A DNA stretch of 53,219 nt from a virus. Lineage: Duplodnaviria > Caudoviricetes. Below the pieces are notes generated by a model. That model made no database searches. It worked only from the letters and a program-made list of their open reading frames with translations, and was not told the origin of the DNA. Both the position numbers and the translations under genes were made by a program. The first letter of the stretch is position 1, and each line of letters opens with the position of its first letter. Below are positions 1 through 43,905 of the stretch, in pieces. Location: positions 1-53,219 of the IMG/VR virus record IMGVR_UViG_3300021591_000002; one strand, given 5' to 3'.

Positions 1-67
1 GTCTCGTTACCGTTTTTGTGCGATTCCTGATCGCCTCGCGTGTCCATGAGAACGAGATGATCTTCAT
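1..67 (-). CDS. ASCH/PUA-like domain protein, 5' part only (runs off the window)
   Basis: Hand translation from ATG at 67: MKIISFSWTREAIRNRTKTVTR, matching the ASCH N-terminal hxF...I..G.KT.TRR pattern. ATGA overlap with the stop of the upstream gene. Confidence 0.6.
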   Translation of the reverse strand, partial: MKIISFSWTREAIRNRTKTVTR

Positions 68-1194
68 TTTGTATCTCCGTCCAGGAACTTGGACACCGCG
101 TCCTTGATAGCGGCGGGCACGTAGTTAACGCAGTCGGTTGTGCGCTTACCGTTCGCCAGCGCCACCCTGCACGTCATGCCCCAGTGGTCAGGGGGCAAAC
201 CATACGCCCATGACCAGAAGCACGTGCCTATGGGGCAAGGAAGACGCCCGCCGGGGGTTGCTATGGAGTGCACGTTGCCCTCTATGGCGAAGAACGGGTA
301 CGGCGTCGGCCCCATTAGGGTGAGGCAGCGGCATGATGCAGAACGCGCTACATATGATGCAAATCCCTCAACGGACACCACACCAAGCGCGCCCCTCATC
401 AGCTTAACTACTGCGTCCATGCGAAGCCCGCGTGCGTCAATCGTTCCATCAAGTTTCGGTACATCGCGCGCACCTATGTGCACAACCTCGACGCCGCGCT
501 CCTTAGCGCAATCCAGCACGACCTTAATGCAATTCTGCGGAAGGCTCTTGACGGCGGATAGCATGCCACTGGCGAACGACACCACTATGTATTTCTTGCC
601 CTTGGGTATTTTGGGAGGTGTGGCCTTACCCCAGTTTTCGGGGCGTATGCTGGTTAGCGGCGGCGGGAGATTGTCCTTGCGCGGTCGCACAGGGGGCTTA
701 TCGAGTACGGGCATTAAGTCTGGCGTTACCGGCACACCCAAGGACGCAGATGCCGCCTCGAACTGCGTTTCCCCAAGCGCGCGGAGCATGTAGCGAGAAT
801 ACGGGTCTCCAAGCGAAAGCCCAAGATATGGCATCGAGGATGCCACCGGTCGCCCGCGCCTATCCCAGAGTATCGGCACCATTGATGTGGCGTCAAGCAC
901 GTAGCCCCATTGCTTAAGTAACCTGGCAAGCATACCGCGCGTCGGCATGGGTTGGTGGGCGACGAAGCCCGCAAGCCAAGGGCACGCGGCGGCTATGGAC
1001 CATTCTATTGATGTGCCAGTCACCGTGGTGGTGAATATTACCTTACCGTAGCCCGCCAAGTGAAGCGCCCTGGCGCAGGCGGCAGCCCGCATCTTATCTC
1101 CGTAGCCCACGCCGGATAACACAAGCACGTAGTCATGGGGGTGGGTCTTGACGAGGCTGTGTAGTTTCGCCACGAGCCACTCAAAGCGTGTCAT
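64..1194 (-). CDS. GT9 (heptosyltransferase-like) GT-B glycosyltransferase
   Basis: N-terminal GVGYGD; C-terminal VVHIG...IDARG...GVVSVEGFASYVA...TLMGPT, the typical GT9 pattern. Confidence 0.75.
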   Translation of the reverse strand: MTRFEWLVAKLHSLVKTHPHDYVLVLSGVGYGDKMRAAACARALHLAGYGKVIFTTTVTGTSIEWSIAAACPWLAGFVAHQPMPTRGMLARLLKQWGYVLDATSMVPILWDRRGRPVASSMPYLGLSLGDPYSRYMLRALGETQFEAASASLGVPVTPDLMPVLDKPPVRPRKDNLPPPLTSIRPENWGKATPPKIPKGKKYIVVSFASGMLSAVKSLPQNCIKVVLDCAKERGVEVVHIGARDVPKLDGTIDARGLRMDAVVKLMRGALGVVSVEGFASYVARSASCRCLTLMGPTPYPFFAIEGNVHSIATPGGRLPCPIGTCFWSWAYGLPPDHWGMTCRVALANGKRTTDCVNYVPAAIKDAVSKFLDGDTK

Positions 1195-1595
1195 CAGAAT
1201 GGCACCTCCGATGCATCGTCAACGAACGCTTCGGGCTTGGCATCCTCGGCTTGCTGCTGGTCGCGGAGCGCCGCCCCGGTTATGACCTCTCGCGCTATAA
1301 TTTCGTATTTCCACCCTGTCTTTCCGCGGTAGGCATCGAGCTTGCCTATTATGCCGATGCGTTCGCCCCGCTTGACGTTAGCCAGGATACGCGCGGCTGA
1401 ACCCCAGGCGCTGATCGGGAAGAACCGATTGCTCCACTTCTCCACGCCATTCTCGAGGCGCGTTGATGCCGATACGCGAAGCAATAGCTTGACACGCGGC
1501 ACGCCGTTGTATTCGGTAATCTCGGGCTGCTCGGCCTGCTGGTAGGGAACGGCGCGCCCCGACAACACAACGAAGTTGGTGTCTGCCCAAGGCAT
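1194..1595 (-). CDS. ssb: single-stranded DNA-binding protein
   Basis: NFVVLSGR...FFPISAWG..A..LANVKRGERIGIIGKL OB-fold pattern; acidic tail ending EVPF. Confidence 0.9.
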   Translation of the reverse strand: MPWADTNFVVLSGRAVPYQQAEQPEITEYNGVPRVKLLLRVSASTRLENGVEKWSNRFFPISAWGSAARILANVKRGERIGIIGKLDAYRGKTGWKYEIIAREVITGAALRDQQQAEDAKPEAFVDDASEVPF

Positions 1596-8006: not shown

Positions 8007-8057
8007 TCTCGCACCCCCGGTTTCCCAAGTAAAGAATACCCCAAGATGCCCCGCTTG

Positions 8058-29747: not shown

Positions 29748-30197
29748 ATGCCAGAGACGTATGTTTGTAACAGGCCGAAGCTAAAGGTTGTCGCTGTTCC
29801 CCCCGTGCCGATGGTCGGCACCGGCAATTCGGCGCGTCCGCTCACCAACATTCCCGAGGTGAGTGTGCAATTCGTTGGGGCGAAGTGCACCCCGCCGACG
29901 GTTGAGGAGCTTGTGCCGCGCTTCGAGGCCGCGTACCTTGAGGCAGGCGAAGATGTGCATGAAGCCAAGAAGAAGGCCAAGCTTGCCGCGAAGGCAGCTC
30001 ATGATAGGCTTATGCGGCTCCTCAACAGCGATAAGCTTCGGCAGCTTGCTGGCGTTCGCCCGGAAGGCGAATTGCTTGAATCGCGGGCTAAAGCCGCAGC
30101 CGAGATGCTGCAAAAGGTCGCGCAGGACCAGGGCAAAAGCGTTGACGAGCTTCTGAAGCAACTTCCGCCCGCTTCCGATGAGGGCACGAATGAATGA
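29748..30197 (+). CDS. hypothetical protein
   Basis: GGAG RBS; ATGA coupling to the next gene. Confidence 0.7.
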   Translation: MPETYVCNRPKLKVVAVPPVPMVGTGNSARPLTNIPEVSVQFVGAKCTPPTVEELVPRFEAAYLEAGEDVHEAKKKAKLAAKAAHDRLMRLLNSDKLRQLAGVRPEGELLESRAKAAAEMLQKVAQDQGKSVDELLKQLPPASDEGTNE

Positions 30198-30841
30198 GTT
30201 ACCAGACATTCGGCGATCTCAAGCGCCTTGCAAGATATTTGGTGGGGGAGACCGGAAGTGAGCCGCGTACGATGGAGTGGATTTCCACTGCCATCAACGC
30301 AGCCTACGCCGAATTTTGTTCCGAGTATCCCTGGAGCTTCAGGCAGCGCATAACCACGGTTACGTACCCCGCCAGGGCATCCTCTTTGTCTATTTCCTCT
30401 TACGGGGTGATACAGGGCGTGTTTCGCGTTGGCGGTGGCTTCCTTGACTGGATGCCGCCGCTTGTGCTTACTGCGCGCAAAGAACGCACCACAGGCTATG
30501 GAACACCGCGGGCGTGGTCCGTCTATTCCACCGACCTCTACTTGTTTCCAACCCCCGGAAGCGACACGAACTTGAAGCTCTACCATCTAATAGACGTTGA
30601 TCCGTTGGTCAACGATTCCGACGAACCGATCATCCCACTCGCCTTTCGCCCATATCTCGCGTACGGCGCGCTTGCCATAATGACGGCAACGGAGAATTTC
30701 GAGAATCCTTCCGCCGCGCGCATGTACCGCGACATCTACGAGAAGGGCGTCCGCTTGGCGAAGATGCAAGAGCCTGGCGGAGCGCTCTACAAGGCGCACC
30801 AGGATATGCCGGGGTGGCCCACAAGTGGAGCAGTATATTGA
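30194..30841 (+). CDS. head-tail adaptor (tail tubular protein A-like)
   Basis: IN.A..E.C...PW, GTPR.W, YLFPTP, D.D.P.IP...LAYGAL. Confidence 0.8.
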   Translation: MSYQTFGDLKRLARYLVGETGSEPRTMEWISTAINAAYAEFCSEYPWSFRQRITTVTYPARASSLSISSYGVIQGVFRVGGGFLDWMPPLVLTARKERTTGYGTPRAWSVYSTDLYLFPTPGSDTNLKLYHLIDVDPLVNDSDEPIIPLAFRPYLAYGALAIMTATENFENPSAARMYRDIYEKGVRLAKMQEPGGALYKAHQDMPGWPTSGAVY

Positions 30842-33023
30842 TATTCCCGCCGTTCGCATAGGTCCGATGGCCGACACGGCCGATCACGCCCAACTTGCGC
30901 CATCAATATCGCGCGAGCTTAGAAACTGCTGGTTCAAGGAGGGGTACGCGGATATAAGGCCGACGTGGGGTAATAGCGGGCTTACCGATCCCGCGCCGGG
31001 CGATGGGTGCCTTGGGAGCGGATACTTCACATCGGACTCCGGCGAGATAACCTATATCACAATCACGTGGGATCAGGCGACGGGGGTGCCAGATGGCTGG
31101 GGGGACGAGACGCCACGGGATGATGTGGCTCCCGACTCTGTGGTACTTGTGATACCCTGGAAGAATGGCGCCTTCATAGTTCCCTCACGCCCGCCGGGGT
31201 ACTACACCAACGGCGAAAGCGGACCCATACTTTATGCAAACACGGATGGCATCTCCCGCATAAATGCGGACCAGCCGGATGCTCCTAACGTCGAAGAACA
31301 CACGGAAGCCGGCAATGTCATGCCGGGGGTGTATTCCTACGTAGTGCAATGGGAAAACGTTGCAACCGGCATTTTGTCGCCGGCGTCGGAGCCAACGCAG
31401 ATAACAGTGGGGCTGAATGAGGAAGATGCGCAAGGACCATCCGCAGGTCCCGTGGTGTCCGTGGAAAGCGGCGGAAACATTGATAAAGGGTCCCGGCTAT
31501 ATAGTGTGGCGTTCTACAATCCTTCGACAGGGCGCGAAACGGCGCTCGGTACCGCGACTACGGCGATAATAACGGAAGACAACAGCAAGGTTGTGCTTAC
31601 CGGGGTACCGGTGCCCAAGAACACCACGGAATGGCCGCAGAAGAGGCTTTATGTTTCGGACGCGGCGGGCGCTTTTCGCCGCCTAGCGACACTCTCCGCA
31701 ACTACAACTTCTTACGTAGATGATGGGAGTGTATCCCCCGGTGATGAACATGTAACAACGGGCACTTCCGTAAAGATCACTTGGGCTGAAAACACCGCTC
31801 CACTTGCCGGCAGTTCATGGAAAATGCGCGTGTACAGGTCGTCGGGTGGCGGTGGTTATCAATTTCTAGGTTACATGGAAGGTGGTCAATTCATTGACAC
31901 ATATGAAACAGCCGAAGAAGCTCCTGGCGGCGGGACCTTGCTGGAGACCATCACACAAGTGCCGTGGTGCAATCATGCTTGCGCATCCGTGGACGGCATT
32001 GTCGCGTGGGCATGTGATAAAGAGACGCCCGCACCATTCAAGGTGTACGTATCATCTTCGCCCGATCAGCCCCTATCCGTGGGGGAAGAATACGACATCG
32101 ACCCACGCTATGGCCCGATTACCGCGCTGGCGCGCTGCGGCGAGAACTTCCTGGTCTTTACGGCGCGCTCTATCCAGGCGATTACGCCAACATCTGGCAG
32201 GGCGACGGTCATCACGGCGGGTATGGGGTGCATAGGTCCACGCGCGTGGTGCGAAACGCCACACGGCATAGCATTCGCGTCAATCTACGGGCCTGCCTTT
32301 CTGCCAAGATGTACGGGCGATCCCCGCTATGTCGGCCCCGATCCGGAGCAGTTCGCCCTTCGCGATCTCTGGGCGGAAATGTTCTCCACGGACAATGGCC
32401 GCACGACACAAACGATAGACATAGCCCAGTACAAGGTGCGGTGCTTACATGTTCCGGAAATACCTGCCGTGCTATGGTTCTTCCAGCGCGCCAAGTGGCC
32501 GGCGGACACGAGCATCCTGCCGTACACATTCGATACCGCAATAATGTGGGAATACGGAAGGCGCGATGAACGATTGACGGTGCACGATCTTCTGTGTGTG
32601 CAGGATGTACTGCTTACGCCGGAGGGCACGCCGCGCCCGCTGTGCTGGCTGTGGCCCGGCGGCTGGAAACGGATATTTGGCAAGGACGTAACCGAAGAGA
32701 TAGTGCAATACACCGGTCTGTCTAGCGATGGCCATGCCGTGAGCGGATTCCCCGCAGAACAGATACCTAGCCAAGGGGACGTTCTGTATGTTTCAAGCGG
32801 CACGGGACAGATGACCGGGGACGTCCAACGGATGGTTGATCACGTCGTGGTGAGCGTTGGTTGCGGGGGCATAGTCATAACCGCCGGGGAGCCAGTGCTT
32901 GGAGAGGATTCCACCGTGTGGCTGAATGGCTTCCCGTGGGTGGTAGATATAGGCCCAATCGTTCCTGCGGAGCCGGAGTTGGTGAAGCGCTGGACTCGCA
33001 TTTCCGTGGAGACTGCACAATGA
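30825..33023 (+). CDS. tail nozzle / packaged-DNA stabilisation protein (tubular protein B-like), apparently lacking its C-terminal strands
   Basis: Follows the adaptor; Ig/FN3-like inserts; GPITAL, LVFT..SI and GMGCIGPR propeller motifs; ends P..VKRW.RISVE. Confidence 0.75.
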   Translation: MEQYIDIPAVRIGPMADTADHAQLAPSISRELRNCWFKEGYADIRPTWGNSGLTDPAPGDGCLGSGYFTSDSGEITYITITWDQATGVPDGWGDETPRDDVAPDSVVLVIPWKNGAFIVPSRPPGYYTNGESGPILYANTDGISRINADQPDAPNVEEHTEAGNVMPGVYSYVVQWENVATGILSPASEPTQITVGLNEEDAQGPSAGPVVSVESGGNIDKGSRLYSVAFYNPSTGRETALGTATTAIITEDNSKVVLTGVPVPKNTTEWPQKRLYVSDAAGAFRRLATLSATTTSYVDDGSVSPGDEHVTTGTSVKITWAENTAPLAGSSWKMRVYRSSGGGGYQFLGYMEGGQFIDTYETAEEAPGGGTLLETITQVPWCNHACASVDGIVAWACDKETPAPFKVYVSSSPDQPLSVGEEYDIDPRYGPITALARCGENFLVFTARSIQAITPTSGRATVITAGMGCIGPRAWCETPHGIAFASIYGPAFLPRCTGDPRYVGPDPEQFALRDLWAEMFSTDNGRTTQTIDIAQYKVRCLHVPEIPAVLWFFQRAKWPADTSILPYTFDTAIMWEYGRRDERLTVHDLLCVQDVLLTPEGTPRPLCWLWPGGWKRIFGKDVTEEIVQYTGLSSDGHAVSGFPAEQIPSQGDVLYVSSGTGQMTGDVQRMVDHVVVSVGCGGIVITAGEPVLGEDSTVWLNGFPWVVDIGPIVPAEPELVKRWTRISVETAQ

Positions 33024-33244
33024 TCATCTTGAAATCTCGCCACCATTCCATTGATAAGGCCGCGCCGTCGGATTCCCTTCCGAAAGCGCCGCCGCGTAAG
33101 CGCTGCATCAGATGCGGCGCCTCTTTCCGCGGCAACACGCTCATTTGCCCTGTGTGCCACAGGGCGGCGCGTGAAATATGGGAGAAGAACCGGCGTAAGA
33201 GCGACGGCAACTTGCCACCGGGCGTGGTCAGGGTGAGGAAATGA
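33020..33244 (+). CDS. small zinc-finger protein
   Basis: ATGA-coupled start MIILK; CIRC...CPVC. Confidence 0.55.
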   Translation: MIILKSRHHSIDKAAPSDSLPKAPPRKRCIRCGASFRGNTLICPVCHRAAREIWEKNRRKSDGNLPPGVVRVRK

Positions 33245-33245
33245 G

Positions 33246-33479
33246 ATGCCACGCAGGCCAAAGCACATAGTAATACGCCGCGTCGCGGGCGGCGGAATTT
33301 CTGTCCATACCGTTGACGGAGCCGTTAACGCGCGGCACACGCTAGACGTTACGATTGCATCACCGCCAGGGAAGAGTACCGAGGAGGCTGCGTATGAGGC
33401 AGCACTTACGATCCTGAAAATCGAGAAGGAACTTACGCAAGAAAAAATGCTTCTCGGTGAAAGGCCACTGGGATGGTAA
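33246..33479 (+). CDS. hypothetical protein
   Basis: GAGG RBS; 77 aa. Confidence 0.55.
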   Translation: MPRRPKHIVIRRVAGGGISVHTVDGAVNARHTLDVTIASPPGKSTEEAAYEAALTILKIEKELTQEKMLLGERPLGW

Positions 33480-34051
33480 GCATGCCAACACGCCAACGCA
33501 CGATCAAGAAGTGGCTTGATTACCTTGCCGAAACTAACGGGGAGGTGGCGGCACTTGAGATCGGGCGGGTTCGCAGCCCGAATGAGACAGTTGGGCACTC
33601 AACGGTAGTGATCGCAAGGCACCCCGCAGTCAAGCGGCTCGTTTCGATTGATATAAATGCCGCGACGGAGTACGTAGCGCGTGAGCTGCTTGGAGAGGAA
33701 ATTCAGAAGGTTGAGTTCATAAATGCCGATTCGTTCTCCGCGCTGGAGAAACTTCTCCTGAGGGGCGACACCTTCGATTTTCTGTACCTCGACGGCGCCA
33801 GTGATGCCGAGATATGCTTTACGGATTTTATGGGCGCCCTCAATGTGTCGCGTGAGGGCTCCATAATAGTGCTGGACGATACGGACCCGAAGTGCGACGT
33901 GAAGGGCAACCTTACCGTCCCTTGGGCGGAAGAACACGGCGACATAGTGGAAATCGTGGATCGCGTGCCTTCCGGGCCGGATAGCAACGGGCAAACTGTC
34001 TTGCGCGTCATAATCCCCGGAGTGTTTGAATGCGAGCCTATGCGTACTTAA
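33473..34051 (+). CDS. class I SAM-dependent methyltransferase (Methyltransf_24-like)
   Basis: LEIG, VSIDIN, FINADS, FDFLYLDG, IIVLDD. Confidence 0.85.
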   Translation: MVSMPTRQRTIKKWLDYLAETNGEVAALEIGRVRSPNETVGHSTVVIARHPAVKRLVSIDINAATEYVARELLGEEIQKVEFINADSFSALEKLLLRGDTFDFLYLDGASDAEICFTDFMGALNVSREGSIIVLDDTDPKCDVKGNLTVPWAEEHGDIVEIVDRVPSGPDSNGQTVLRVIIPGVFECEPMRT

Positions 34052-34890
34052 CGAAGAGCACGCTCGCGTGGCGCGGCGCCGGGCAGATTGCACGCAATAC
34101 GAAGCGCCTATTCGTCGGCCCATGGATTGGTGAGTTCGGATTCGAGGTTATGAACCTCGGTGTGGTACGGAGACTTAAGCAATACTTTGAGGAGGTGATT
34201 GTGTGTTCGCGTCCTGGCTCTCGCGCGTTGTACGACGGTGTGGCCGATGAATTCATCGCGCACGACATTGACTGCATAGGAGCGTGTGTGGGGCTTTCGA
34301 CAATATCGCGGCCCGTATCGCAGCAAGAAATAGAGCGCTGGCTTCCTTCGCCGCACGAGGCAACCATGCAAAAATTAATTGACTATGGCAACCACTGGCC
34401 GGGCGTCTATCAACGGCTCGGAAAGCGCGTGAAAGATTGGGATGGTATTGTCGTTGTCCACGCGCGACACAGAGAGCACGCCCCGGAAAGAAACTGGTCG
34501 CGTGAGCGCTGGAACATGCTTGCGAGACTCCTTCTTCGATCTGGTGCCGTAAAACGCCTCGTGGCCATCGGCACGGAGGAAAGCGCGTGGTCTGTCGAGG
34601 GGGCGATTGATGCGCGAAGGCTTGACCTTCGCGAGCAGATGAGTATCCTTGCGAGCGCCAGGCTGGCGATCGGTCCATCCAGCGGTCCCATGCACTTGGC
34701 ACAGCATTGCGGCTGTCCGGTGATGGTGTGGTGTGGAGGGCCAGAACGCTTCGTCATCGCTGATCGCTACAGGTGGTGGTGGAACCCGCTTGGCACACCC
34801 GCCTACCCGCACGTGGAAGAAGGATGGTGGCCTTCGGTGGAGCAGGCTTACCATTGGACAATAGAGGCCCTTGAGAAGGAAGCTGGATAA
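34030..34890 (+). CDS. GT9-like glycosyltransferase
   Basis: GPWIGEFG.E, RNW...W, IDAR..DL, AIGPSSGPMHLA..CGCP. Confidence 0.82.
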   Translation: MRAYAYLTKSTLAWRGAGQIARNTKRLFVGPWIGEFGFEVMNLGVVRRLKQYFEEVIVCSRPGSRALYDGVADEFIAHDIDCIGACVGLSTISRPVSQQEIERWLPSPHEATMQKLIDYGNHWPGVYQRLGKRVKDWDGIVVVHARHREHAPERNWSRERWNMLARLLLRSGAVKRLVAIGTEESAWSVEGAIDARRLDLREQMSILASARLAIGPSSGPMHLAQHCGCPVMVWCGGPERFVIADRYRWWWNPLGTPAYPHVEEGWWPSVEQAYHWTIEALEKEAG

Positions 34891-35873
34891 TGAGTGTTGT
34901 GCTTTTGCGAGAGGACCCGCCGGGCGCCGTTGGTGGTGTGCCTAGATACTACGACAATCTTGTGAAGGCGTGCGGTATCGTTGATGTTGGCATAAACGAT
35001 AGCACGCTCATTGACTGGAAGGCCGGGCGCTTGTCTATTTCGGCGGACAATGATCTCGTTATTGTTACCAACCAGTATGCGTGCGATATTCCCCCGCAGT
35101 ACGCGGTCATTGCCATTCAGCACGGCTGCGCAATGGAGCATGGCCTTGCTAATAACTACCAGCCGCACATAGAAATGGGCGCGCGCCAGTTGGCCGCCGC
35201 GCAACGAGAACGAACGTATTGGGTGGCTGTGAGCGAGTACGCCGCGCTGCATTGCAAGTGGCATATGGGCGTTGACGCGAGGCGGATAATATGGGGTGCG
35301 GTTGACACGGAAGCATTTCATCCCGGCGAGCGGCAGATGCATCGGAATCCGCAGGGCAAGATAGTCGTCTTGGCGTCGGCTACCGATGATTGCAAGGGGC
35401 GGCATCTGCTTGACGACGTAGCCAATGCCCTTGGCGATTGCTTTAGTGTGAAGAATCTTGTCGGCGTGAAGCCAAGCGAAATGCCCGACGCCTTGCGTAG
35501 TGGCGATATATTTCTTAGTCTGTCGCTTGAGGAAGGCTTGCCGACGGTTGTGCAAGAAGCATTGTCCGTCGGGCTTGTGGTTGTGGGTACGCGGACCGGC
35601 TTCCTTTGGAGCCACGCCCACGGCGACCCCGTGTATTGTGGCAACAGGGACGCCGTGGCATGGGCCAATTACGATGTCGGCGCGGTCATCTTCGATCCGC
35701 GTCTCCGCGACATGGCCGAGTGGGTGGCCGACTTCATTCGGGGCGCCTGGGAGAGGCGGCATCGCTTCAACGGGCGCGTCTTCGCCTTGCGGTGGTTCGG
35801 GCTTGAGCTTTTCGGGCGGCAGTGGGCGCTTGCGTTCGCCGAAGCCCGCGAAGAACTAGGGGTGAAACCATGA
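34890..35873 (+). CDS. GT4 family glycosyltransferase
   Basis: GGV, VAVS, AVDT..F.P, DIFL..S..EGLP.VVQEALSVG..VV.T. Confidence 0.87.
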   Translation: MSVVLLREDPPGAVGGVPRYYDNLVKACGIVDVGINDSTLIDWKAGRLSISADNDLVIVTNQYACDIPPQYAVIAIQHGCAMEHGLANNYQPHIEMGARQLAAAQRERTYWVAVSEYAALHCKWHMGVDARRIIWGAVDTEAFHPGERQMHRNPQGKIVVLASATDDCKGRHLLDDVANALGDCFSVKNLVGVKPSEMPDALRSGDIFLSLSLEEGLPTVVQEALSVGLVVVGTRTGFLWSHAHGDPVYCGNRDAVAWANYDVGAVIFDPRLRDMAEWVADFIRGAWERRHRFNGRVFALRWFGLELFGRQWALAFAEAREELGVKP

Positions 35874-36580
35874 AGCCGGTTGGCGTGGCGATAATAGCGT
35901 ATCGGCGCCTCGAAGACGCACGCCGTGCCGTAAGGTCCGTGCTGGCGAACACGCGGTACCCCTTCAGGCTACTTGTATTCGATAACAGTGATGACTTTCG
36001 CATTGGCTCGTGGATGCTCGCGCATGCTAACTCCGCGATGTATAGGCGAAGCCCGTACAATTGCGGCACGTGCCTTGCCCGTAACGAAATCATGCGGGTA
36101 TTCTGCCGCATGGGTATGGATTATTGGGTAGTCATGGACCAGGACGTGGAGGTTGTGGCGCCCGGCTGGGTAAAAGACATGCTTGACGTGTTCAAGCATT
36201 ATCCGGATACTGGTATCGTCGGCTGGCGCAATGCCGTGCGTTCGGCAGGGTGCCCGCATGCGCCAGATAATACAGGCCGTATGCCGGAGATACCAGGCGT
36301 GTGCACAATGGTAAGTCGCAAGTGCGCAGAGGCGGTAAATGGTTGGTGCGCCAGATACTTCCTGCACCGTGGGGAGGATACAGACTTCTGCCTGGCGGCT
36401 GCGACAAAAGGCTTCGCAACACGGGTTGTGATGGGGCCGGATAAGATAGCCCACCACCACCCACATCGTGGTGTCCAAGCCTTCGCCGGCCACGGCAAAA
36501 TGTGGAGCCTGAGCGACGCAATACTCAAGGAGCGCACGGAAAAACTTGGGTTCGAACGTATCCCCGGGATAAATGCCTAG
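35870..36580 (+). CDS. GT2 family glycosyltransferase
   Basis: IIAY, VFDNS, N.G...ARN, DQD (DxD), EDTDFC. Confidence 0.87.
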   Translation: MKPVGVAIIAYRRLEDARRAVRSVLANTRYPFRLLVFDNSDDFRIGSWMLAHANSAMYRRSPYNCGTCLARNEIMRVFCRMGMDYWVVMDQDVEVVAPGWVKDMLDVFKHYPDTGIVGWRNAVRSAGCPHAPDNTGRMPEIPGVCTMVSRKCAEAVNGWCARYFLHRGEDTDFCLAAATKGFATRVVMGPDKIAHHHPHRGVQAFAGHGKMWSLSDAILKERTEKLGFERIPGINA

Positions 36581-36589
36581 GGGTAGGTC

Positions 36590-37198
36590 ATGAGGAAGCG
36601 AGTAACTAGCGAGAACACGGGGGGCAAGCTCCTGGTTGGGTGTGCGCGGGGGCGCTGGATATGGCGTCCGTGGCGTTGGCCCGGCCTGCTGCTGGGCGTG
36701 CTAATCCGACTGTTTGGCGCGCTTAGTTGCGGACGGTTTGCGCCATATAGCCACATGTTTTTGTGGTATGGCTCAACGATATGGGAGGCTAGTAAGACAT
36801 GGCGGCGTGGGCACATAAGCGAGTACGACGATAAGTCGCTTGTGGTGGATGTGTACGAGATACTTCAGCCGAATGGAAAGCCGCTTGCGCAATGGCAGGT
36901 GCGCCGCGCGCTGGAAATGGCGGACGCGATGGTGGGGCAGCCGTATGACTGGTACCACCTTATACGCATGGCTGCATCAATGCTTGGTATTTTGCACGAT
37001 GATATCGACACATACATTCCAACGAAGCCCTTGTGCTCCGAAGGTGTGGCGCTTTGTTACTACGCCGCCGCCGTTGATATTCCGGGCGCTGCGGGCACCA
37101 AGCTCTGGACATTCGCGCCATGGCATATCTTGCGTCTGCTCAAGCGCAAACCGCCGATGGCAACGTTGCAGGGGAGGCTTTCGTTGGGCTTGAATTAA
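36590..37198 (+). CDS. permuted papain-like NlpC/P60 amidase (YiiX/YebB-like)
   Basis: YSH before G.PYD and CSE.VA..Y, i.e. His before Cys (permuted order). Confidence 0.8.
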   Translation: MRKRVTSENTGGKLLVGCARGRWIWRPWRWPGLLLGVLIRLFGALSCGRFAPYSHMFLWYGSTIWEASKTWRRGHISEYDDKSLVVDVYEILQPNGKPLAQWQVRRALEMADAMVGQPYDWYHLIRMAASMLGILHDDIDTYIPTKPLCSEGVALCYYAAAVDIPGAAGTKLWTFAPWHILRLLKRKPPMATLQGRLSLGLN

Positions 37199-37237
37199 CG
37201 CAACCACGTGGTATATTGGTTGTGATTGGAGGCGATA

Positions 37238-37588
37238 GTGAAGCGCTGCAAAGCATATTGGATGATTGGTCTAATTGCGGTAGCTGCCGCTTCATGCGCG
37301 CCGCGCCCGCCACGCGAATCGACAAAGGCCGTGCTAGCGATCCTGTCGCGGATGGTTGGCGGCGAGGTGCCGAGCATGGTAGCAGCGCAGGTGGCGGCCA
37401 TTGCGGAGGGACGAGAAGTCAAACCCGTCAAGATCACGCCCCAGAACCAGATAGTTTCGCCCGTTACAGGCAAGCTGTGCAGCTTTATCACTAAAGATGG
37501 CCTGACGCCGGCCGGTATTGCGGTGGTAAAGCTTCTGCTCGGAAGTGCCGCAGAGCCAGCGCCGGAGAGTACGCAGCATGGGAAATGA
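37238..37588 (+). CDS. predicted lipoprotein
   Basis: GGAGG RBS; basic N-terminus, hydrophobic stretch and lipobox-like AAAS-C. Confidence 0.6.
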   Translation: MKRCKAYWMIGLIAVAAASCAPRPPRESTKAVLAILSRMVGGEVPSMVAAQVAAIAEGREVKPVKITPQNQIVSPVTGKLCSFITKDGLTPAGIAVVKLLLGSAAEPAPESTQHGK

Positions 37589-37847
37589 ATGGCTTCAGCT
37601 TGGCGTTGCCATTGGTTCGGCGTTTTGCGGCGCGGTGATGGGCGCCGTTGGGGCGACACGACTACTCAACGGCAAGGTCGCCAAAACGAATGGCCACCCA
37701 TTGCCGGAATGCGCAGCAACCTTTGCAAGGCACGACGAGGCGATATCGAGCCTTCGCGGGTGGCTAGAACGAATGGAAGAGCGTTTAGGCAACATACACG
37801 ACGTGATCCTGGAAGTGCGTAACCACTTGAGGGAAAGGAGCAGGTGA
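37578..37847 (+). CDS. TM plus coiled-coil protein (holin/XhlA-like)
   Basis: N-terminal TM helix, C-terminal LER.E.RL coiled coil. Confidence 0.6.
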   Translation: MGNEWLQLGVAIGSAFCGAVMGAVGATRLLNGKVAKTNGHPLPECAATFARHDEAISSLRGWLERMEERLGNIHDVILEVRNHLRERSR

Positions 37848-37981
37848 TGGGACGCAACCGACCTGGCGTGCGGGACGGTACAGGCCCCTACAAGGGCAGC
37901 TGGCAGCGCCGACAGACGGGCAGCCGAGGCAAGCGCCAGCTGCGTGGCGAGAAGTGTCCGAAGCGCGGGAGGCGCGGCTGA
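37847..37981 (+). CDS. small basic protein with RDGTGP motif (DUF5320-like)
   Basis: MGRNRPGVRDGTGPYKGSW...CPKRGRRG*; TGATG coupling. Confidence 0.6.
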   Translation: MGRNRPGVRDGTGPYKGSWQRRQTGSRGKRQLRGEKCPKRGRRG

Positions 37982-38061
37982 CATGTGCGTCTTGGTGAAG
38001 CTGACGCGGCACGCGCGGGAGCATCTCGCGGCAACCGCACAGGACCAAAAGGAGAAGCGCG

Positions 38062-38247
38062 ATGAAATGGCTCGCAGGCAAAAAGACCTACATCACGATG
38101 GCTGCGGCGGTCCTGACCGCAATCGCCTCGCTCGCTAGCGGGGAGATCACCGTCGGCGAGTGCGTGGTGGCCATACTCGGCGCGCTCGGTGTGGCAAGCC
38201 TCCGTGCCGGCGTGGCCAAGGCGGAGAAGGCCGCGAAGAAGGAGTAG
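38062..38247 (+). CDS. small 2-TM holin-like protein
   Basis: GKKTYI..., LG...LRAGV pattern; AAGGAG RBS. Confidence 0.65.
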   Translation: MKWLAGKKTYITMAAAVLTAIASLASGEITVGECVVAILGALGVASLRAGVAKAEKAAKKE

Positions 38248-38250
38248 CGC

Positions 38251-38613
38251 ATGACGCTGAGCGCCGGCGACTTCAAGGTCAAGTGGGAAGCCGGCCGCCG
38301 GGGTGTTCAGTGGGCGGTCGTTACGCACGTGCCATCGGGTCGCACATTTCGCCTGAAGGCCGCGGCGTGTGTGACTCGCACCTGGCGATCTGAGGCAGAC
38401 AGGGATGCGTGGCTTCGCAAACACGCGCTCGCCTACTACAGCCGTATGACGCATGAAGAATTGCCTGACGGCATACGCGAAAGGCTCCTAGAGGAAGCCC
38501 GGCAGCGCCTGGAAGAGCTGAGGGCCGCCCGTGAGTTCTTCGAGGAGCTACGAGAGCGCTACCCGGAGTATTCGGACCGGATCCCTACTGTGACAATCAG
38601 CGGAGGTGAGTAG
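38251..38613 (+). CDS. hypothetical protein
   Basis: AAGGAG RBS; 120 aa. Confidence 0.7.
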   Translation: MTLSAGDFKVKWEAGRRGVQWAVVTHVPSGRTFRLKAAACVTRTWRSEADRDAWLRKHALAYYSRMTHEELPDGIRERLLEEARQRLEELRAAREFFEELRERYPEYSDRIPTVTISGGE

Positions 38614-40028
38614 TGGCAGACAAGGTTTTCGACAATCTCGGCAACGGCTCTGGCACGTGGGAAGACCCCACCGACTGGGACCCTGAAGGCGTCCCTGCCG
38701 ACGGCGACACCATCCGGATCAGCGCCGACTGTACCGTGAGTACAGATTACTCCGCGTTGACATTCTCGGACCTGGAGATTGACGCGGGCAAGACGTTGAC
38801 CGTCGCAAATGGCGGCGACATCCGCTTCGGTACCAATCCCGGTCACATTGCCGCCACAGGCAAGCTGCATATTGATACTGGCGGGAACATACGCTACACC
38901 GACACATACCTGGAAGTCGATGGCATCATCGAATTCGATGGCGGGGTATTCGAACTATACAGCACAGCTACGACAAGTACCTACATCTATATGCAGTATG
39001 ATAGTGCCATTACCGCGACGGCGAATGGCGGCACAGTACGGATGAACTGTGCGGCGGACGCAAAGTGTTATATCCGCGCCCGCACTGGTGGCGTAACCAT
39101 CGCTGGAAATCCGGCAGCGAGGCTCATCCTGGACTGCGGCAACGGGGTGGCCAAGGCGAATGGCATACAAGGATATGAGTCGTATTCAGCACCCGCGCAA
39201 CTCTCGCATCTTGAGATTCGGGATGCTTATATCGGCGTGAAGCTCGGCAGAACTAATTGTGCGACGATCACTGATTGCCTAATCCACGGATGTCAGTATT
39301 GTGGCCTGTTCTGTGACGGAGGCCCGGCATGTCTGGTGCGTGATTGCGTTATCTATGATTGCTATGTGGGCATGTATGGCCACTTCGCTTCTTGTCTGTC
39401 GGCCGTTAATATTGTGTTGGGCGAGACAGAAGACGAAACACCCGCGCCTAATGACTATGATGTCTCTGTAAAGTATATGGGCAACACCATGGTCTTTTAT
39501 AATTGCAAGTTTTCTAGCCCCGTGCCAGTTAGAATAGAGACGACGTACAATCAATGGAGCGGGCGACACTGCGGCATGATTTCAAATGCTCATGATCAGG
39601 ACAAGGAGGCCTTTAAGCGCTGGATAGGCCCGGGGCATACTCTTGAGAGCGAGTTTAGCATCACGCACGGAGGTAGCCGCCAGTCTTTAAAGATGACCAC
39701 AAGCAGTAAGGCGGGCGCTGATGAGCGGCGTCGCGCCGACTTCACCCTGGCCACATGGCCAGCCACCCACGGCGACACGCTGGATGTCAGCCTGTATGTT
39801 CGCGGCCAGGCGGGCGACAAGATCAAACTCATAGTTGATCCCGAAGGCCACTACGGCACCACGCAGAGTACAGAGCACACCCAGAGCGTTAGCGATGCGT
39901 GGGAGAAGGTCAGCGTGCCAACCTACACCGTGAACACCAACCCAGGCGAGAAGATGGGCATCCCAATCGTGGTGCGGTGCGAGGAGCCGTTAAAAACCTG
40001 GTATCTCGATACCCTGGAGGTCAACTGA
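38613..40028 (+). CDS. beta-helix (pectin-lyase-like) tail spike with C-terminal carbohydrate-binding-like domain
   Basis: G.W.D...W...GVP..GD N-terminus; I.DC.I..C..G repeats; G..SLK, VSLYVR and WYLD jelly-roll motifs. Confidence 0.7.
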   Translation: MADKVFDNLGNGSGTWEDPTDWDPEGVPADGDTIRISADCTVSTDYSALTFSDLEIDAGKTLTVANGGDIRFGTNPGHIAATGKLHIDTGGNIRYTDTYLEVDGIIEFDGGVFELYSTATTSTYIYMQYDSAITATANGGTVRMNCAADAKCYIRARTGGVTIAGNPAARLILDCGNGVAKANGIQGYESYSAPAQLSHLEIRDAYIGVKLGRTNCATITDCLIHGCQYCGLFCDGGPACLVRDCVIYDCYVGMYGHFASCLSAVNIVLGETEDETPAPNDYDVSVKYMGNTMVFYNCKFSSPVPVRIETTYNQWSGRHCGMISNAHDQDKEAFKRWIGPGHTLESEFSITHGGSRQSLKMTTSSKAGADERRRADFTLATWPATHGDTLDVSLYVRGQAGDKIKLIVDPEGHYGTTQSTEHTQSVSDAWEKVSVPTYTVNTNPGEKMGIPIVVRCEEPLKTWYLDTLEVN

Positions 40029-40219
40029 TGCCCACGCAGGTGACGTTTGACTATGGTGCCTATGACGGGCGGCCAGTGATCGACGAAACGCCGCAAGACA
40101 CGGAGAGTCTTGACTATGGCGCCTATGATGGCGTGCCGGTAGTCTATCCCCAAGAGACAGCCCCGCCGACGGGCGTCGCCCCGCAGTTCATGCACTACGC
40201 GCGCTTGAGGAGAGCGTGA
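40028..40219 (+). CDS. small protein with duplicated DYGAYDG.PV motif
   Basis: FDYGAYDGRPVI and LDYGAYDGVPVV; TGATG coupling. Confidence 0.7.
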   Translation: MPTQVTFDYGAYDGRPVIDETPQDTESLDYGAYDGVPVVYPQETAPPTGVAPQFMHYARLRRA

Positions 40220-40220
40220 G

Positions 40221-41855
40221 ATGCTCTTTCTGAAACAGAACACCGCAGCAACCATCATCATCGGCCCGATGGTTAGTGATAGCGATGGATACACGCCAGA
40301 GACCGGCCTTACCATCTCGCAGGCCGACGTGCGCCTGAGCAAGAATGGCGGAGCGTTCGCCCAGAAGAATGACAGCAACGCTTGCACACACATGGAGAAC
40401 GGCTACTACTCCTGTCAGCTCGACGCCACCGACACGAATACCCTGGGGCGGCTTGTGGTGGCGGTGAGCGAGAGCGGCGCGCTGCCGGTGTGGAAGGAGT
40501 TCATGGTCATCCCCGCCAACGTGTATGACAGCCTGGTGGGCGGCAGCGACAAGCTCCAGACCGACGCCGTGGAGATCAGCGGCAGCAGCGCGGCGGCCGA
40601 TGCCGTTGAAAGCAACATTGGCAATCTCGACGCCGCGGTCTCCGGTGTGAAGAACCAGACAGACAAGTTGACCTTCGACGCGAGCAACCGCGTGGCGGCC
40701 GACGCGCGGGCCATCAGCGCTTCGACAGCGGCGGCAGATGCGCTTGAGGCCAACATTAGCAATCTTGATGAGGCCAGTTCCACACTGCTCTCTGCGATCT
40801 TCAACATCGGCGTGGCGGCGGCCAGCGCGGCTAAGGTGGCCGAGGGCCGCGCCATCACCAGCGGCACCGAGACCGGCACCTACGAGAACACTTACGCGCT
40901 CGATGAAACCTACCACGTCATCACGGCGGACGGCGGTGAGATCGACCTCTACTATGACTTCACGCTCAGCGACGACTCGGTGCCCGTGGCGGCGCATGTC
41001 AAGGGCCGCCTCCACGAGGGCAGCACCCCTGGCGGCGGGGACAGCGTGGACATCTACGTCTATGACTGGACTACCAGCAGCTGGGAGCAAGTGGTCCCAC
41101 CGCTCGGCGGCTTCGTGGGCGTGGCCAACAGCGACAGCGATGACGATGAAGTCCGCGTGATTCCGCTCTTCCCGCGCCACAAGGACAGCTCCACGAACAA
41201 GGTCCGCGTGCGGTTCGCCGGTAGCTCCCTTGAGGCGAACACGGCGCTCTACGTTGATCAGATTTACCTGACCCACACGGCGGTCCTCTCCTACAGCGGC
41301 ATTGCAAGCTCCATCCTGGCGACGCCAGCCAACAAGCTGAAGACCGACAGCGACGGCTACGCGCAGGCCGACGCGGTGAAGATCAGCGGGAGCGAGGCTG
41401 CTGCGAACAGCGTAGAGGCGAATATTGGGAATCTTGACGTAGCTGTGTCTAGCCGCAGTACGTTCGATCCCAGCTCTGATAAAGTGGACGTTGGTAAGTG
41501 GGCGGGCGCGTCCGTAGCCACGGGTACAACTAGCGGGATGCCGAAGGTGGACATCCATGCCATCAACGACAATATAAGCGCCGCCGACACCCTTGAAAGC
41601 AACGTCAGCAATATGGACGCCAAGGTGTCCGAGATCAAGGCGCAGACCGATAAGCTTCGATTTGAAGACAACGACGTGAAGGCCACGCTTGATGGCGAGA
41701 AGGTGAATCTGAACGATAACCAGGCCACGGTAACCATCGGCACGGTCAACGCCCTGGGGAATCAAGCGAAGACGGACGTGAAGGGGCAATGCGGTCAAGC
41801 GCTGGGGGATTACGGCGCGGCAAAGGCATCTGATGTGCAGGTTATTGTGCCATGA
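40221..41855 (+). CDS. tail-fibre-like virion protein with four ~30-aa repeats
   Basis: Repeats D...IS.S..AAD..E.NI.NLD..VS; central beta-sandwich insert. Confidence 0.7.
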   Translation: MLFLKQNTAATIIIGPMVSDSDGYTPETGLTISQADVRLSKNGGAFAQKNDSNACTHMENGYYSCQLDATDTNTLGRLVVAVSESGALPVWKEFMVIPANVYDSLVGGSDKLQTDAVEISGSSAAADAVESNIGNLDAAVSGVKNQTDKLTFDASNRVAADARAISASTAAADALEANISNLDEASSTLLSAIFNIGVAAASAAKVAEGRAITSGTETGTYENTYALDETYHVITADGGEIDLYYDFTLSDDSVPVAAHVKGRLHEGSTPGGGDSVDIYVYDWTTSSWEQVVPPLGGFVGVANSDSDDDEVRVIPLFPRHKDSSTNKVRVRFAGSSLEANTALYVDQIYLTHTAVLSYSGIASSILATPANKLKTDSDGYAQADAVKISGSEAAANSVEANIGNLDVAVSSRSTFDPSSDKVDVGKWAGASVATGTTSGMPKVDIHAINDNISAADTLESNVSNMDAKVSEIKAQTDKLRFEDNDVKATLDGEKVNLNDNQATVTIGTVNALGNQAKTDVKGQCGQALGDYGAAKASDVQVIVP

Positions 41856-42688
41856 TTGTGTATCATCGGGCCTGCCAGCAATACAGCAACGGCGCCTGGT
41901 CTGCGCTGACGCCACTGTCTATCTCTGCCGAGACATTCACGCTTTCCGGCACGAGCATTGAATCCCTCTCCGCATCATATGATTCGTCTGCCGGGCGCTA
42001 TTATGTGCAAACCACGGATGTGCAGTATGTTAGCGGGCAAACATACGAGATTAGGTGGAGTGTAACGCTCGCGTCGGGGACATACGCAGTCTCTGATTAT
42101 TTTGTCCATCGGCAACCGTCTGGGGCAGGGAGCCCGCCAGAGGCGCCCACCGTCCGCGTACTGGAGACGCATGTCGGCTACGCTACTTTATATGTCGCGG
42201 AGCCAGCAGACCCCGACGATGATTATAGCCATTCGATTATATACGTCACAGGACGCGATGGCACCTTTGGTTCGTACACCGCCCTTCCCGGCGCGCATGT
42301 GCAAGTATTTGGCGCGGCGGGCGTGGAGCATTTTGCGACGGCCGTGGCAGTCGATTCTGAGGGTAACAAGAGTGCCCCATCGCCGGTGGTAACGTTTGTG
42401 CCGCTTCAGGAGGAGGACGATTCCGCCGGCGAGATGCCAATCACTGTCCGGTGGTATGTAGATGAAGAGGGAGAACATGCCTTTTCGCCGGGCTACATAA
42501 ATACGGGGAGGCACGGGATACAAACGATAGGTTCTACCCTCGCGCCTATAGCGCGTGGACGCGGACTGCGCGTCAGGCTTGAGTGTAGATATCCGGTGCA
42601 CCCCAAGGTCCGTAGGATAATGCTCATGTTTACCGCGCCGGTACGGCGTCCCCCGGAAGGCGTGCACACGAAGGCGAAAGAGCGATGA
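41852..42688 (+). CDS. virion protein with FN3-like domain and nozzle-like C-terminal segment
   Basis: PEAP...AVAVD..GN.S.PS FN3 motif; C-terminus ITVRWYVD...RGRGLRVRL...VRRI. Confidence 0.7.
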   Translation: MIVYHRACQQYSNGAWSALTPLSISAETFTLSGTSIESLSASYDSSAGRYYVQTTDVQYVSGQTYEIRWSVTLASGTYAVSDYFVHRQPSGAGSPPEAPTVRVLETHVGYATLYVAEPADPDDDYSHSIIYVTGRDGTFGSYTALPGAHVQVFGAAGVEHFATAVAVDSEGNKSAPSPVVTFVPLQEEDDSAGEMPITVRWYVDEEGEHAFSPGYINTGRHGIQTIGSTLAPIARGRGLRVRLECRYPVHPKVRRIMLMFTAPVRRPPEGVHTKAKER

Positions 42689-43905
42689 CCGTACAGGAAG
42701 CGCTCAAGGCCCTTGGTGGCTGGAGTCCTGATAGTTGGTGTTTAGAAGGAATGCCGCCCGAGACACGGGAGGCGCTGCGGGCGCTTTCGGGATTCCTTCA
42801 TAACATCTTGCCGCGGGCCATTCAGCAGGTCATAGACTCTACATTAGCTTCCAGCAGCGGGGACAGTCTCGATCAACTGGTCGGCGATGGTGCCTTTATA
42901 AAGGTGATAAGAAACCGGCAGGCTAATGACTTCGTGCCCGCCAAGGGGCTTCCTTCGTATCCCGGAAGCGGCATCATTGTGGCGCACGGTAACCCTGCGC
43001 CGTCGTGGGTCGGTGGCAACACGTCAACGCACATGCTTGGCAACGTGGCGGGTAAGTGCGTCGTCGGCGTGCGCGTAGATGATGCGGATCACGTGAAGGG
43101 CGTAGAGCTTGGCCCGCTGTCCAGCGCCAATGTGATCCCTGCCGTTGCGGTATCGGATTATGACAAGAATGCCGATCCGCCCACAGTATATGTGCAGCTG
43201 CTTCAAAGTTGGACGGGCACGCCTTACGGCGACACCAAGACGTGCGTGCTACCGTATGGCGGAAGCTTTTACCCCAATGTTCGGACGGGCGATATCATTG
43301 CGGTAACGGAAGATGGTGTTATAGAAGAATATGATCTCATAGCGCTTGCTGGGCATCTGGATCTTCATATTGGCGCTGTCATACACACGACGTTAACGGG
43401 CGATTTACGGGCGGGGTGGCAGCAATTTGCAGAAAGCCGATATCTTATCGGCTACCCCAAGTCTGGCCGTGATATGCTCAGCGAGGGCGGCTCCGAAACA
43501 CACACACATGAGCCGCATGACAAGTATATTTGGCAGCATTACCACACGGTCAGCGCCCACACGCACGCCATTAGTGGGTCCGACTTGTATTCTGCCCTTG
43601 CCCATGTGCATGACATGACGCACGCGCATGGGTATAATGGGTGGTCGCAAATCGATCCTATGGCATTTACGGGCACTGGCTTTGACTGGGTGATACATTG
43701 GAATTCCAACTATGACCCGCCCACCACGGATACGTACAATGGTGATACGGGCGACGCGAAGTGGAGTAGCGCAGGGGATATTTCCACAGGCAGCGGCGGA
43801 GGCGGAAACACATCAACATGGGAGCCGAGCGCGGACGTAGAACACAGCGAGGAGTCACACGAGTATCTGGACGTCGTGGTGCGCCACATAATGCGCGTTG
43901 ATTGA
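42685..43905 (+). CDS. tail fibre with HxH metal-binding motifs
   Basis: GW......RYLIG collar-like motif, GGSETHTH, then HYH, HTH, HVH, HAH; ends V..IMR. Confidence 0.75.
   Translation: MTVQEALKALGGWSPDSWCLEGMPPETREALRALSGFLHNILPRAIQQVIDSTLASSSGDSLDQLVGDGAFIKVIRNRQANDFVPAKGLPSYPGSGIIVAHGNPAPSWVGGNTSTHMLGNVAGKCVVGVRVDDADHVKGVELGPLSSANVIPAVAVSDYDKNADPPTVYVQLLQSWTGTPYGDTKTCVLPYGGSFYPNVRTGDIIAVTEDGVIEEYDLIALAGHLDLHIGAVIHTTLTGDLRAGWQQFAESRYLIGYPKSGRDMLSEGGSETHTHEPHDKYIWQHYHTVSAHTHAISGSDLYSALAHVHDMTHAHGYNGWSQIDPMAFTGTGFDWVIHWNSNYDPPTTDTYNGDTGDAKWSSAGDISTGSGGGGNTSTWEPSADVEHSEESHEYLDVVVRHIMRVD

Follow-up and report, generated by a model that had tools for sequence, protein, structure and literature searches.

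An intact, divergent tail-nozzle gene and a separate protein predicted to dock on its product in an uncultured phage

We analysed the whole of IMG/VR virus record IMGVR_UViG_3300021591_000002, a linear record of 53,219 bases (hereafter the window; completeness estimate 66%), with a focus on two of its genes: one that encodes a tail-nozzle protein (P0001) and another, located downstream, that encodes a conserved protein of 278 amino acids (aa; P0002). A preliminary description of the same DNA had proposed that a 9.4-kb cassette splits the nozzle gene and that the severed C-terminus is now fused to P0002. Our comparisons demonstrate that both genes are intact, that the nozzle family has a conserved end, that the DNA between the two genes is a mosaic and that P0002 lacks sequence similarity to nozzle C-termini. 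With reasonable confidence, we interpret P0001 as an intact nozzle of a new sequence family that bears a C-terminal docking tail, onto which P0002 would clip as a three-domain arm that probably carries fibres. Such docking is a predicted variant, in an uncultured phage, of a recently described mechanism. The elements concerned are as follows (positions are those of the window).

30825..33023, + strand: nozzle protein gene (P0001), 732 aa, GTG start; intact according to its translation, fold matches and homologue ends.
32934..33020, + strand: nozzle residues 704–732, comprising the last hairpin strand and the conserved C-terminal tail; predicted docking surface, from the modelled interface and the tail motif.
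41852..42688, + strand: gene for P0002, a conserved 278-aa protein and candidate nozzle-bound arm, from its translation and homologues.
42440..42640, + strand: P0002 residues 197–263, a C-terminal domain predicted to dock on the nozzle platform, from the modelled interface and invariant motifs.

Judged by its modelled fold and its position, P0001 is a nozzle that belongs to a very divergent sequence family of its own. Its open reading frame (ORF) adjoins the adaptor gene, which lies immediately 5′ of it, and overlaps the end of that gene, so that a portal–capsid–adaptor–nozzle module is present. The fold was modelled by AlphaFold2 on alignment A2, a MAFFT alignment of P0001 and 13 homologues; P0018 (1073 aa), which matches residues 204–297 only, was left out. 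The monomer model is mediocre (mean predicted local distance difference test score (pLDDT) 63.9, predicted template modelling score (pTM) 0.58), with a pLDDT below 50 at both termini (residues 714–732 at the C-terminal one) and of about 45–60 at residues 690–711. It reads as a platform, a beta-propeller with inserted immunoglobulin (Ig)-like domains and then a C-terminal region. The top Foldseek match of the model in the Protein Data Bank (PDB) is SU10 7z4f_G (E 7e-8); further nozzle matches are GP4 8jov_A, HRP29 8es4_E, cyanophage A4 9k09_U and P22 gp10 8eap_D, and phage nozzle or tail chains account for five of the top seven (E 7e-8 to 1e-5, probability 1.00). Comparison by VIA aligns 319–326 residues of the model with P22 gp10 (Z 15.7–15.9, root-mean-square deviation (rmsd) 4.1–4.5), and generic WD40 propellers reach equal VIA scores. 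At the profile level, A2 weakly matches the Pa223 nozzle 9nwi_Y (hmmsearch E 0.028) and aligns by hhalign with LUZ24 gp56, the counterpart of the Pa223 nozzle (probability 68.9, E 4.5e-5). P0001 appears to have the same beta-propeller nozzle fold as P22 gp10 (PF11134) and LUZ24/Pa223 gp56, but differs from P22 gp10 and LUZ24 gp56 in having two inserted Ig-like domains and, according to the structural alignment, a conserved extra C-terminal tail of ~25 residues.

By sequence, P0001 is not a member of the curated nozzle families PF25675 (Phage_nozzle) and PF11134 (Phage_stabilise, the P22 gp10 family in Pfam), and neither it nor P0008, P0012 and P0017 match any Pfam family at E up to 10, bar one unrelated weak match. 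T7 gp12 and P22 gp10 match their own Pfam families at E 0. A phmmer search of PDB sequences with P0001 gave no meaningful match, and no match to the nozzle was found by tblastn against 50,697 phage records or by a word-based homologue search. Scans of IMG/VR with P0001, P0008, P0011 and A1 (the P0002 family alignment) found no relatives, nor did a scan of genome contigs with A3. Scanning IMG/VR with A3 yielded one distant locus only (L007), on a contig that stops ~1 kb past the nozzle; that record (36% complete) contains no P0002-like match.

The reading closest to the preliminary description is a recent insertion, in which a 9.4-kb cassette would have interrupted a single nozzle gene near 33002/42421, with the C-terminus of that gene now joined in frame to an FN3 protein. 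We consider this extremely improbable, first because of where the homologues end. An exhaustive phmmer search with P0001 gave 14 matches, 11 of them full-length. In seven of these 11 (P0008, P0010, P0011, P0012, P0013, P0014 and P0015), the local alignment reaches within 3–8 residues of both C-termini: for P0008 it extends to residue 729 of 732 in P0001 and 733 of 739 in the homologue, and for P0012 to residues 729 and 629 of 632. The remaining four align less far, and their lengths are too short for ~85 further residues. In A2, all 13 other rows end 0–4 columns past the last residue of P0001, and relatives with only 22–30% identity already end at this point. The translation of P0001 ends in ...DIGPIVPAEPELVKRWTRISVETAQ*; ...ETAQ* is the terminus of two fragments, P0006 (96% identical) and P0007 (63%), and also of the orthologue P0020 (62%). 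P0020 is encoded by L002, a 22-kb metagenome contig whose proteins are about 27–70% identical to those of the window. A terminal motif, DP...K.W.R.D.Q.K, is common to the A2 rows, and within the tail P717 is conserved in 7/12, K721 in 8/12 and the D at position 727 in 8/11 sequences.

Structural alignments place the end of the known fold shortly before this shared terminus. By VIA, model residues 34..705 align to residues 32..463 of the 471 in P22 gp10 8u10_1 (Z 15.7, rmsd 4.5, 326 aligned), and residues 32..700 align to 37..1353 of the 1354 in the phicrAss001 protein 7qol_P (Z 16.1, rmsd 4.8, 429 aligned). Because these alignments reach the ends of both chains, the known nozzle fold seems to be complete near residue 705 and to be followed in P0001 by ~25 extra residues. 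Without the inserted Ig-like domains, the nozzle would comprise ~520 aa (estimated from the strand map of the model), compared with 472 aa for P22 gp10 and 513 aa for LUZ24 gp56. As far as homologous sequences can tell, the stop codon of P0001 is the natural end of its family and the gene is whole. The suggestion that the nozzle ORF had been cut short is therefore not borne out, since relatives end at the same point and none extends more than four columns further.

P0002 likewise appears to be a complete protein and not a fusion product. Three homologues are known from our searches, each exactly 278 aa long (98, 60 and 59% identity), and in L002 a homologue occupies the same gene position. The sequence quoted in the preliminary description, ...EMPITVRWYVD...RGRGLRVRLEC...KVRRIMLMF, does begin at 42434, as the quoted nozzle terminus is also present; KVRRIMLMF is not the end of P0002, however, as 18 further residues (TAPVRRPPEGVHTKAKER*) follow. 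All four sequences of the family share the ARGRGLR stretch and the RRI motif without change. P0002 probably consists of three beta-sandwich domains. The FN3-like domain attributed to it finds an echo in the ESM Atlas, which indicates a tandem Ig/FN3-like middle part and serves as a lead only. No sequence match to P0002 was found in Pfam, PHROG or the PDB; the last 93 aa are also blank in Pfam at E up to 10, and PDB sequence searches with P0002 and A1 gave no meaningful match. A single-sequence AlphaFold2 model of P0002 is unusable (mean pLDDT 40.2). As a side observation, the homologue that is 98% identical to P0002 (P0003) lies on a 3,495-base contig and is named by one source as a hypothetical protein of 'candidate division Kazan bacterium'; either a phage contig was binned with a Kazan genome or the name is a hint at the host.

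The DNA between the two genes does not behave as one cassette either. From the nozzle stop to the P0002 start, L002 has 4.5 kb and the window 8.8 kb, because the block 33246–36580 is missing from L002 and its spike gene is different. The order shared with L002 comprises the adaptor, the nozzle, a zinc-ribbon ORF and homologues of the ORFs that start at 36590, 37545, 40221, 41852 and 42685. In both, the ATG of the zinc-ribbon ORF overlaps the nozzle stop (ATGA). Comparison with this relative, which had been proposed as a check, thus reveals the two gene ends in common, other content in between and no cassette-free, longer nozzle. Because a relative at ~60% identity has the shorter distance and the same first gene after the nozzle, the intervening DNA is, on comparative sequence evidence, a mosaic of modules rather than a single cassette.

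Two observations nevertheless favour a recent insertion: the block 33246–36580 is itself an insertion relative to L002, and TTCCG occurs at 33002 and 42421 in the same codon phase, as the preliminary description had stated. But TTCCG is found 136 times in the window, against 119.35 ± 10.4 expected (4 of 100 shuffles reach 136), so the microhomology is at chance frequency and carries no weight. No repeats that pair the two proposed junctions are present among the 20 direct families and 25 inverted pairs listed, and PHROG and Pfam scans gave no integrase, transposase or homing-endonuclease match in 33020–41852. Homologue ends, the junction in L002 and the chance occurrence of TTCCG together leave the split of the nozzle gene by a 9.4-kb cassette without support. 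An assembly artefact is not at issue: run X1 (the probable source) tiles the whole stretch at an even depth of 87–106 with no joints reported, and contigs of run X2, from another study, cover 32800–33084 and 41269–42750 and so bridge both junctions, which are therefore real. Runs X3 and X5 cover the stretch sparsely and in patches, so that their gaps carry no weight.

We then compared the last 89 aa of P0002 (residues 190–278) with nozzle C-termini. Alignment of A1 with A2 by hhalign gave a probability of 0.19%, and that with T7 gp12, P22 gp10 and SU10 gp12, gp13 and gp17 at most 0.2%. When the segment was aligned by Smith–Waterman with the final 90 aa of T7 gp12, P22 gp10 and SU10 gp17, 88, 208 and 61 of 500 shuffles, respectively, scored at least as high, and a hidden Markov model (HMM) of the segment had no match at the C-termini of four nozzles. 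The continuation motif of nozzle proteins given in the preliminary description fared no better: the patterns I.V.W..D, RGR..R.R and P...KR...I.V have no match in 17 tail proteins of T7, P22 and SU10, T7 gp12, P22 gp10 and SU10 gp17 included. The idea that the segment is a transplanted nozzle C-terminus is not supported by any of the three methods (hhalign, Smith–Waterman and HMM), which detect no sequence similarity. A word-based search, which is weak evidence, found no longer protein that carries the last domain of P0002.

Two likenesses seen by eye were also tried and rejected. The RGRGLRVRLEC...RRIMLMF of P0002 resembles the last hairpin of P22 gp10 and LUZ24 gp56, and so does the W.GGF..VVD of the nozzle itself, a competing assignment; both failed the shuffle and HMM tests.

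Structural modelling of the two proteins together gave a different kind of signal. The complex of the whole nozzle (with A2) and P0002 residues 186–278 (with A1) was predicted in three runs, along with three controls. The interaction prediction score from aligned errors (ipSAE) was 0.78, 0.77 and 0.80, and the best of the three controls, one of which retained P0002 with the nozzle swapped, was 0.00. The mark applied to this score is met by 58 of 80 solved complexes and by 2 of 110 mismatched pairs, counts that are rough because own alignments were used. At least 95% of contacts agree between the three runs, with P0002 at a pLDDT of 76–77, and the interface is large (216–220 low-error contacts). 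It involves nozzle residues 1–9, 30–31, 40–44, 622–628, 655–664 and 699–732, and P0002 residues 197, 199, 201–205, 216, 218, 220–229 and 232–263. The lowest-error pairs form a regular strand pairing, of nozzle 705–708 with P0002 240–245 and of nozzle 723–729 with P0002 253–260 and 224–226. Hence, the prediction is that the last domain of P0002 binds the nozzle by pairing of beta-strands between the two chains. The multimer prediction suggested at the outset accordingly returned pairing with the last two strands of the nozzle, and of the idea of docking in trans it is the docking that gains predictive support (ipSAE 0.78 vs 0.00) and the split-gene origin that does not.

According to the portions of the SU10 report cited here (PMC9509320), the platform domain that sits on the adaptor is formed by the N- and C-terminal parts of the nozzle chain, so the predicted docking site on P0001 corresponds to the platform. 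In the arrangement we favour, an intact nozzle with a P0002 arm, the nozzle and P0002 genes (30825–33023 and 41852–42688) are two separate, intact genes, and the DNA between them is the ordinary late-gene block of the lineage (zinc-ribbon ORF, lysis-like genes, exchangeable spike and fibre) plus an accessory block. The last domain of P0002 (residues about 197–263) would clamp the platform, made of the first ~45 residues of the nozzle and its C-terminal region, with nozzle strands 705–710 and 723–729 paired with P0002 strands 240–245 and 253–260. We infer a six-fold stoichiometry, with one P0002 copy per nozzle subunit. The first two domains of P0002 would then point outwards and, as gene position suggests, probably form a dock for the fibres encoded on either side. 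At each end the P0002 gene overlaps a neighbouring fibre gene, stop against start, which we count in favour of docking.

The same gene position can be read otherwise. P0002 may be unrelated to the nozzle, serving as a fibre accessory or connector protein or being located elsewhere on the virion, in which case the complex prediction would be a false positive. Its gene lies between two fibre genes, both of which overlap it, and 8.8 kb from the nozzle, the ipSAE mark is also reached by a few mismatched pairs, and tandem Ig/FN3-like domains, the presence of which in P0002 is a lead only, are common in fibre and decoration proteins. The predicted interface also has almost no extra conservation. We judge this alternative unlikely because the score falls from 0.78 to 0.00 in all three controls, including that with P0002 and a replaced nozzle, and because the many low-error contacts form a regular strand pairing with the conserved tail of the nozzle.

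Several points weigh against our interpretation and are gathered here. Interface residues are barely more conserved than others, both in the nozzle (39/57 identical vs 422/675 elsewhere) and in P0002 (34/51 vs 132/227). The docking is a matter of model confidence only; it draws on shallow alignments (13 and 4 rows), and the nozzle monomer model is mediocre. The end of the fold near residue 705 is soft, because the pLDDT of the model there is about 45–60. A greedy hhalign extension to LUZ24 gp56 halts at gp56 residue 489 of 513, which, if taken at face value, would leave the nozzle without about one terminal strand. Finally, the ESM Atlas links P0002 residues 190–278 to short viral proteins, and in one cluster, of 140-aa proteins, 67% of the members carry part of PF11134 (TM 0.57 over 71 residues). 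This match points towards real kinship with a part of the nozzle, and for so short a stretch is a lead rather than a test.

These last points bear on a further explanation, an ancient and family-wide split, in which the nozzle was once a single chain, its C-terminal platform part is either the ancestor of the C-terminal domain of P0002 or has been structurally replaced by it, and the P0001 family is a 'nozzle-base' dependent on a second protein. There is a precedent for such a mechanism. In Pseudomonas phage A1002 (PLoS Biol, November 2026), the cited portions of the report describe a 'split nozzle' of nozzle-base gp42 and nozzle-rope gp39 (PMC13730344): gp42 (398 aa) is truncated and lacks strands of the platform and of blades 1 and 2, and the C-terminal domains of gp39 (620 aa) supply the missing nozzle strands, gp39 also having an Ig-like domain and a fibre dock (PMC13730344). 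As far as that account goes, the mechanism imagined in the preliminary description therefore exists in nature (PMC13730344).

A split of this kind in the P0001 family would fit the modelled contacts of P0002 197–263 with nozzle residues 1–9, 30–31, 40–44 and the C-terminal residues, which match the two platform parts described for SU10 in the cited portions of that report (PMC9509320). It would also fit the A1002 precedent of gp39 plus gp42, with the same mechanism (PMC13730344, as cited), the ESM Atlas resemblance of P0002 190–278 to the PF11134-rich cluster, the 24 gp56 residues left unmatched past the nozzle end in the greedy hhalign alignment, and the pLDDT below 50 of both nozzle termini in the monomer model. 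Yet P0001 does not appear truncated: at 732 aa, or ~520 aa without its Ig-like domains, it contrasts with the 398 aa given for A1002 gp42, and by VIA the chains of P22 gp10 and the phicrAss001 protein are matched to their ends by the time nozzle residues 700–705 are reached. Nor is there any sequence signal in the hhalign, Smith–Waterman and segment HMM comparisons, and the word-based search, weak as it is, found no longer protein that carries the domain. We therefore think an ancient split doubtful, somewhat more so than an unrelated P0002. Equally doubtful in our view is its corollary, that the P0001 family represents a second independent lineage of two-protein nozzles, in which the tail and the P0002 domain would fold jointly into a common platform domain, completion of the nozzle would occur in trans and the fibre-bearing arm would be exchangeable as a separate gene.

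Returning to the intact nozzle with a docked arm, comparison with known systems shows both likenesses and differences. As in the cited description of A1002, the C-terminal part of a second protein would join the platform by beta-strands, here by prediction only. In A1002, the portions cited describe a gp39 gene parted from the nozzle gene by fibre genes; here, fibre genes flank P0002. Unlike the truncated 398-aa base reported for A1002, the nozzle here is full-size, with structural alignments that reach the known nozzle ends. P0002 (278 aa) is much shorter than the 620 aa stated for gp39, and the two are likened by description. The window resembles SU10 in that its portal, capsid and adaptor proteins fall in SU10 Pfam families and the best Foldseek match of the P0001 model is SU10 7z4f_G. 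For SU10, the cited portions name adaptor gp11, nozzle gp17 and short fibre gp16 as tail parts and describe Ig-like domains inserted in the propeller (PMC9509320), which are apparent in the P0001 model also. They further describe a fibre that docks on the nozzle, though on a nozzle loop rather than on a separate arm protein (PMC9509320). Unlike in SU10, the nozzle directly follows the adaptor here, and SU10 has no P0002 counterpart; the nozzle sequences are dissimilar (hhalign probability 0.3%, no blastp match at E of 1 or less).

Should the docking prove real, this would be the second podovirus nozzle, after that of A1002 and in an unrelated uncultured lineage, to recruit a separate arm protein by shared beta-strands, and the short conserved C-terminal tail would be the docking element of a new nozzle family. 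This bears on fibre attachment and swapping in short-tailed phages, the more so as the adjacent spike is visibly exchanged between co-occurring strains. The case also calls for caution, as a motif likeness and a 5-base microhomology suggested a gene disruption that relatives ruled out.

P0002 lies between two genes with which it overlaps.

40221..41855, + strand: repeat-rich fibre protein, 544 aa, from its translation; its stop overlaps the P0002 start.
42685..43905, + strand: 406-aa protein, a fibre or receptor-binding protein by inferred role, from its translation; its start overlaps the P0002 stop.

The 544-aa protein contains several copies of a ~34-aa helical repeat, which are reflected in a 75-nucleotide direct repeat (D1, 72% identical). 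Relative to its L002 counterpart, the N-terminal part is 55% and the C-terminal part 46% identical, with a rearranged repeat region in the middle. The 406-aa protein and its L002 counterpart share 50% identity over the first 211 aa and have diverged further in the C-terminal part, a pattern in the sequences that suggests a receptor-binding fibre. Read by eye, the C-terminal part is His-rich and has repeated HxH-type motifs.

The genes between the nozzle and P0002 are those listed in the preliminary description: the methyltransferase, the glycosyltransferase-like genes and the spike are confirmed by Pfam and the fibre is present, with the lysis assignment made by eye only.

33020..33244, + strand: 74-aa zinc-ribbon-like ORF with two CxxC pairs, from its sequence; its ATG overlaps the nozzle stop (ATGA), and a homologue follows the nozzle in L002.
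33246..36580, + strand: accessory block of a 77-aa ORF, a methyltransferase and three glycosyltransferase-like genes, from Pfam matches.
36590..38247, + strand: probable lysis genes (assigned by eye), encoding a 202-aa protein that has a membrane segment near its N-terminus as well as small membrane proteins (37545–37847 and 38062–38247).
38613..40028, + strand: beta-helix tailspike, 471 aa, apparently an exchangeable module (Pfam Beta_helix E 8.9e-7, G8 E 5.8e-5).

The block 33246–36580 (3.3 kb), located between the zinc-ribbon ORF and the lysis-like genes, has no counterpart in L002 and may be an accessory sugar-modification block. Its Pfam matches are Methyltransf_24 (E 8.1e-10), Glyco_trans_1_4 (E 2.7e-7), Glycos_transf_2 (E 1.2e-8) and Glyco_transf_9 (E 1.6e-4, just under its cut-off). 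The lysis-like genes at 36590..38247 have no family match except a weak one in PHROG; the ORFs that start at 36590 and 37545 have L002 counterparts at 43% and 31% identity. SU10 also has lysis genes among its tail genes, which speaks against an insertion here.

In place of the spike, L002 has an unrelated 337-aa ORF (7562–8575). Downstream of 40160 the window is matched by contigs of runs X1, X2 and X5, which carry other sequence before that point, and those of X2 also diverge after 38245. On this sequence evidence, the spike appears to be a cassette that can be exchanged within the natural population. The consensus shared by these loose ends translates as ...NLDLQEG, and the same sequence occurs just before the conserved tail of the 337-aa ORF of L002. 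A 63-aa ORF (40028–40219) starts at the spike stop, and its end, ...PPTGVAPQFMHYARLRRA*, is 89% identical to the last 18 residues of the 337-aa ORF; therefore, the short tail is a separate ORF in the window and is fused to the receptor-binding protein in L002.

The right half of the window is a late operon on the + strand, which includes the following further genes.

24851–26944, + strand: SU10-type portal (Pfam SU10_portal, E 4e-14).
28425–29657, + strand: SU10-type major capsid protein (Pfam SU10_MCP, E 1.5e-10).
30194..30841, + strand: adaptor protein gene, 215 aa (Pfam PF24175 SU10_adaptor, E 1.5e-11, 45.5 bits, cut-off 27), 63% identical to the L002 adaptor.
47508–53219: giant ORF of at least 1904 aa that runs past the window end.

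The giant ORF matches no Pfam family above threshold and is in the position of the large ejection-type proteins of SU10. A second, weak methyltransferase-like ORF is located at 43902–44459 (Methyltransf_24, E 0.019, under the cut-off); it lies within the tail/ejection gene block, and a counterpart exists in L002.

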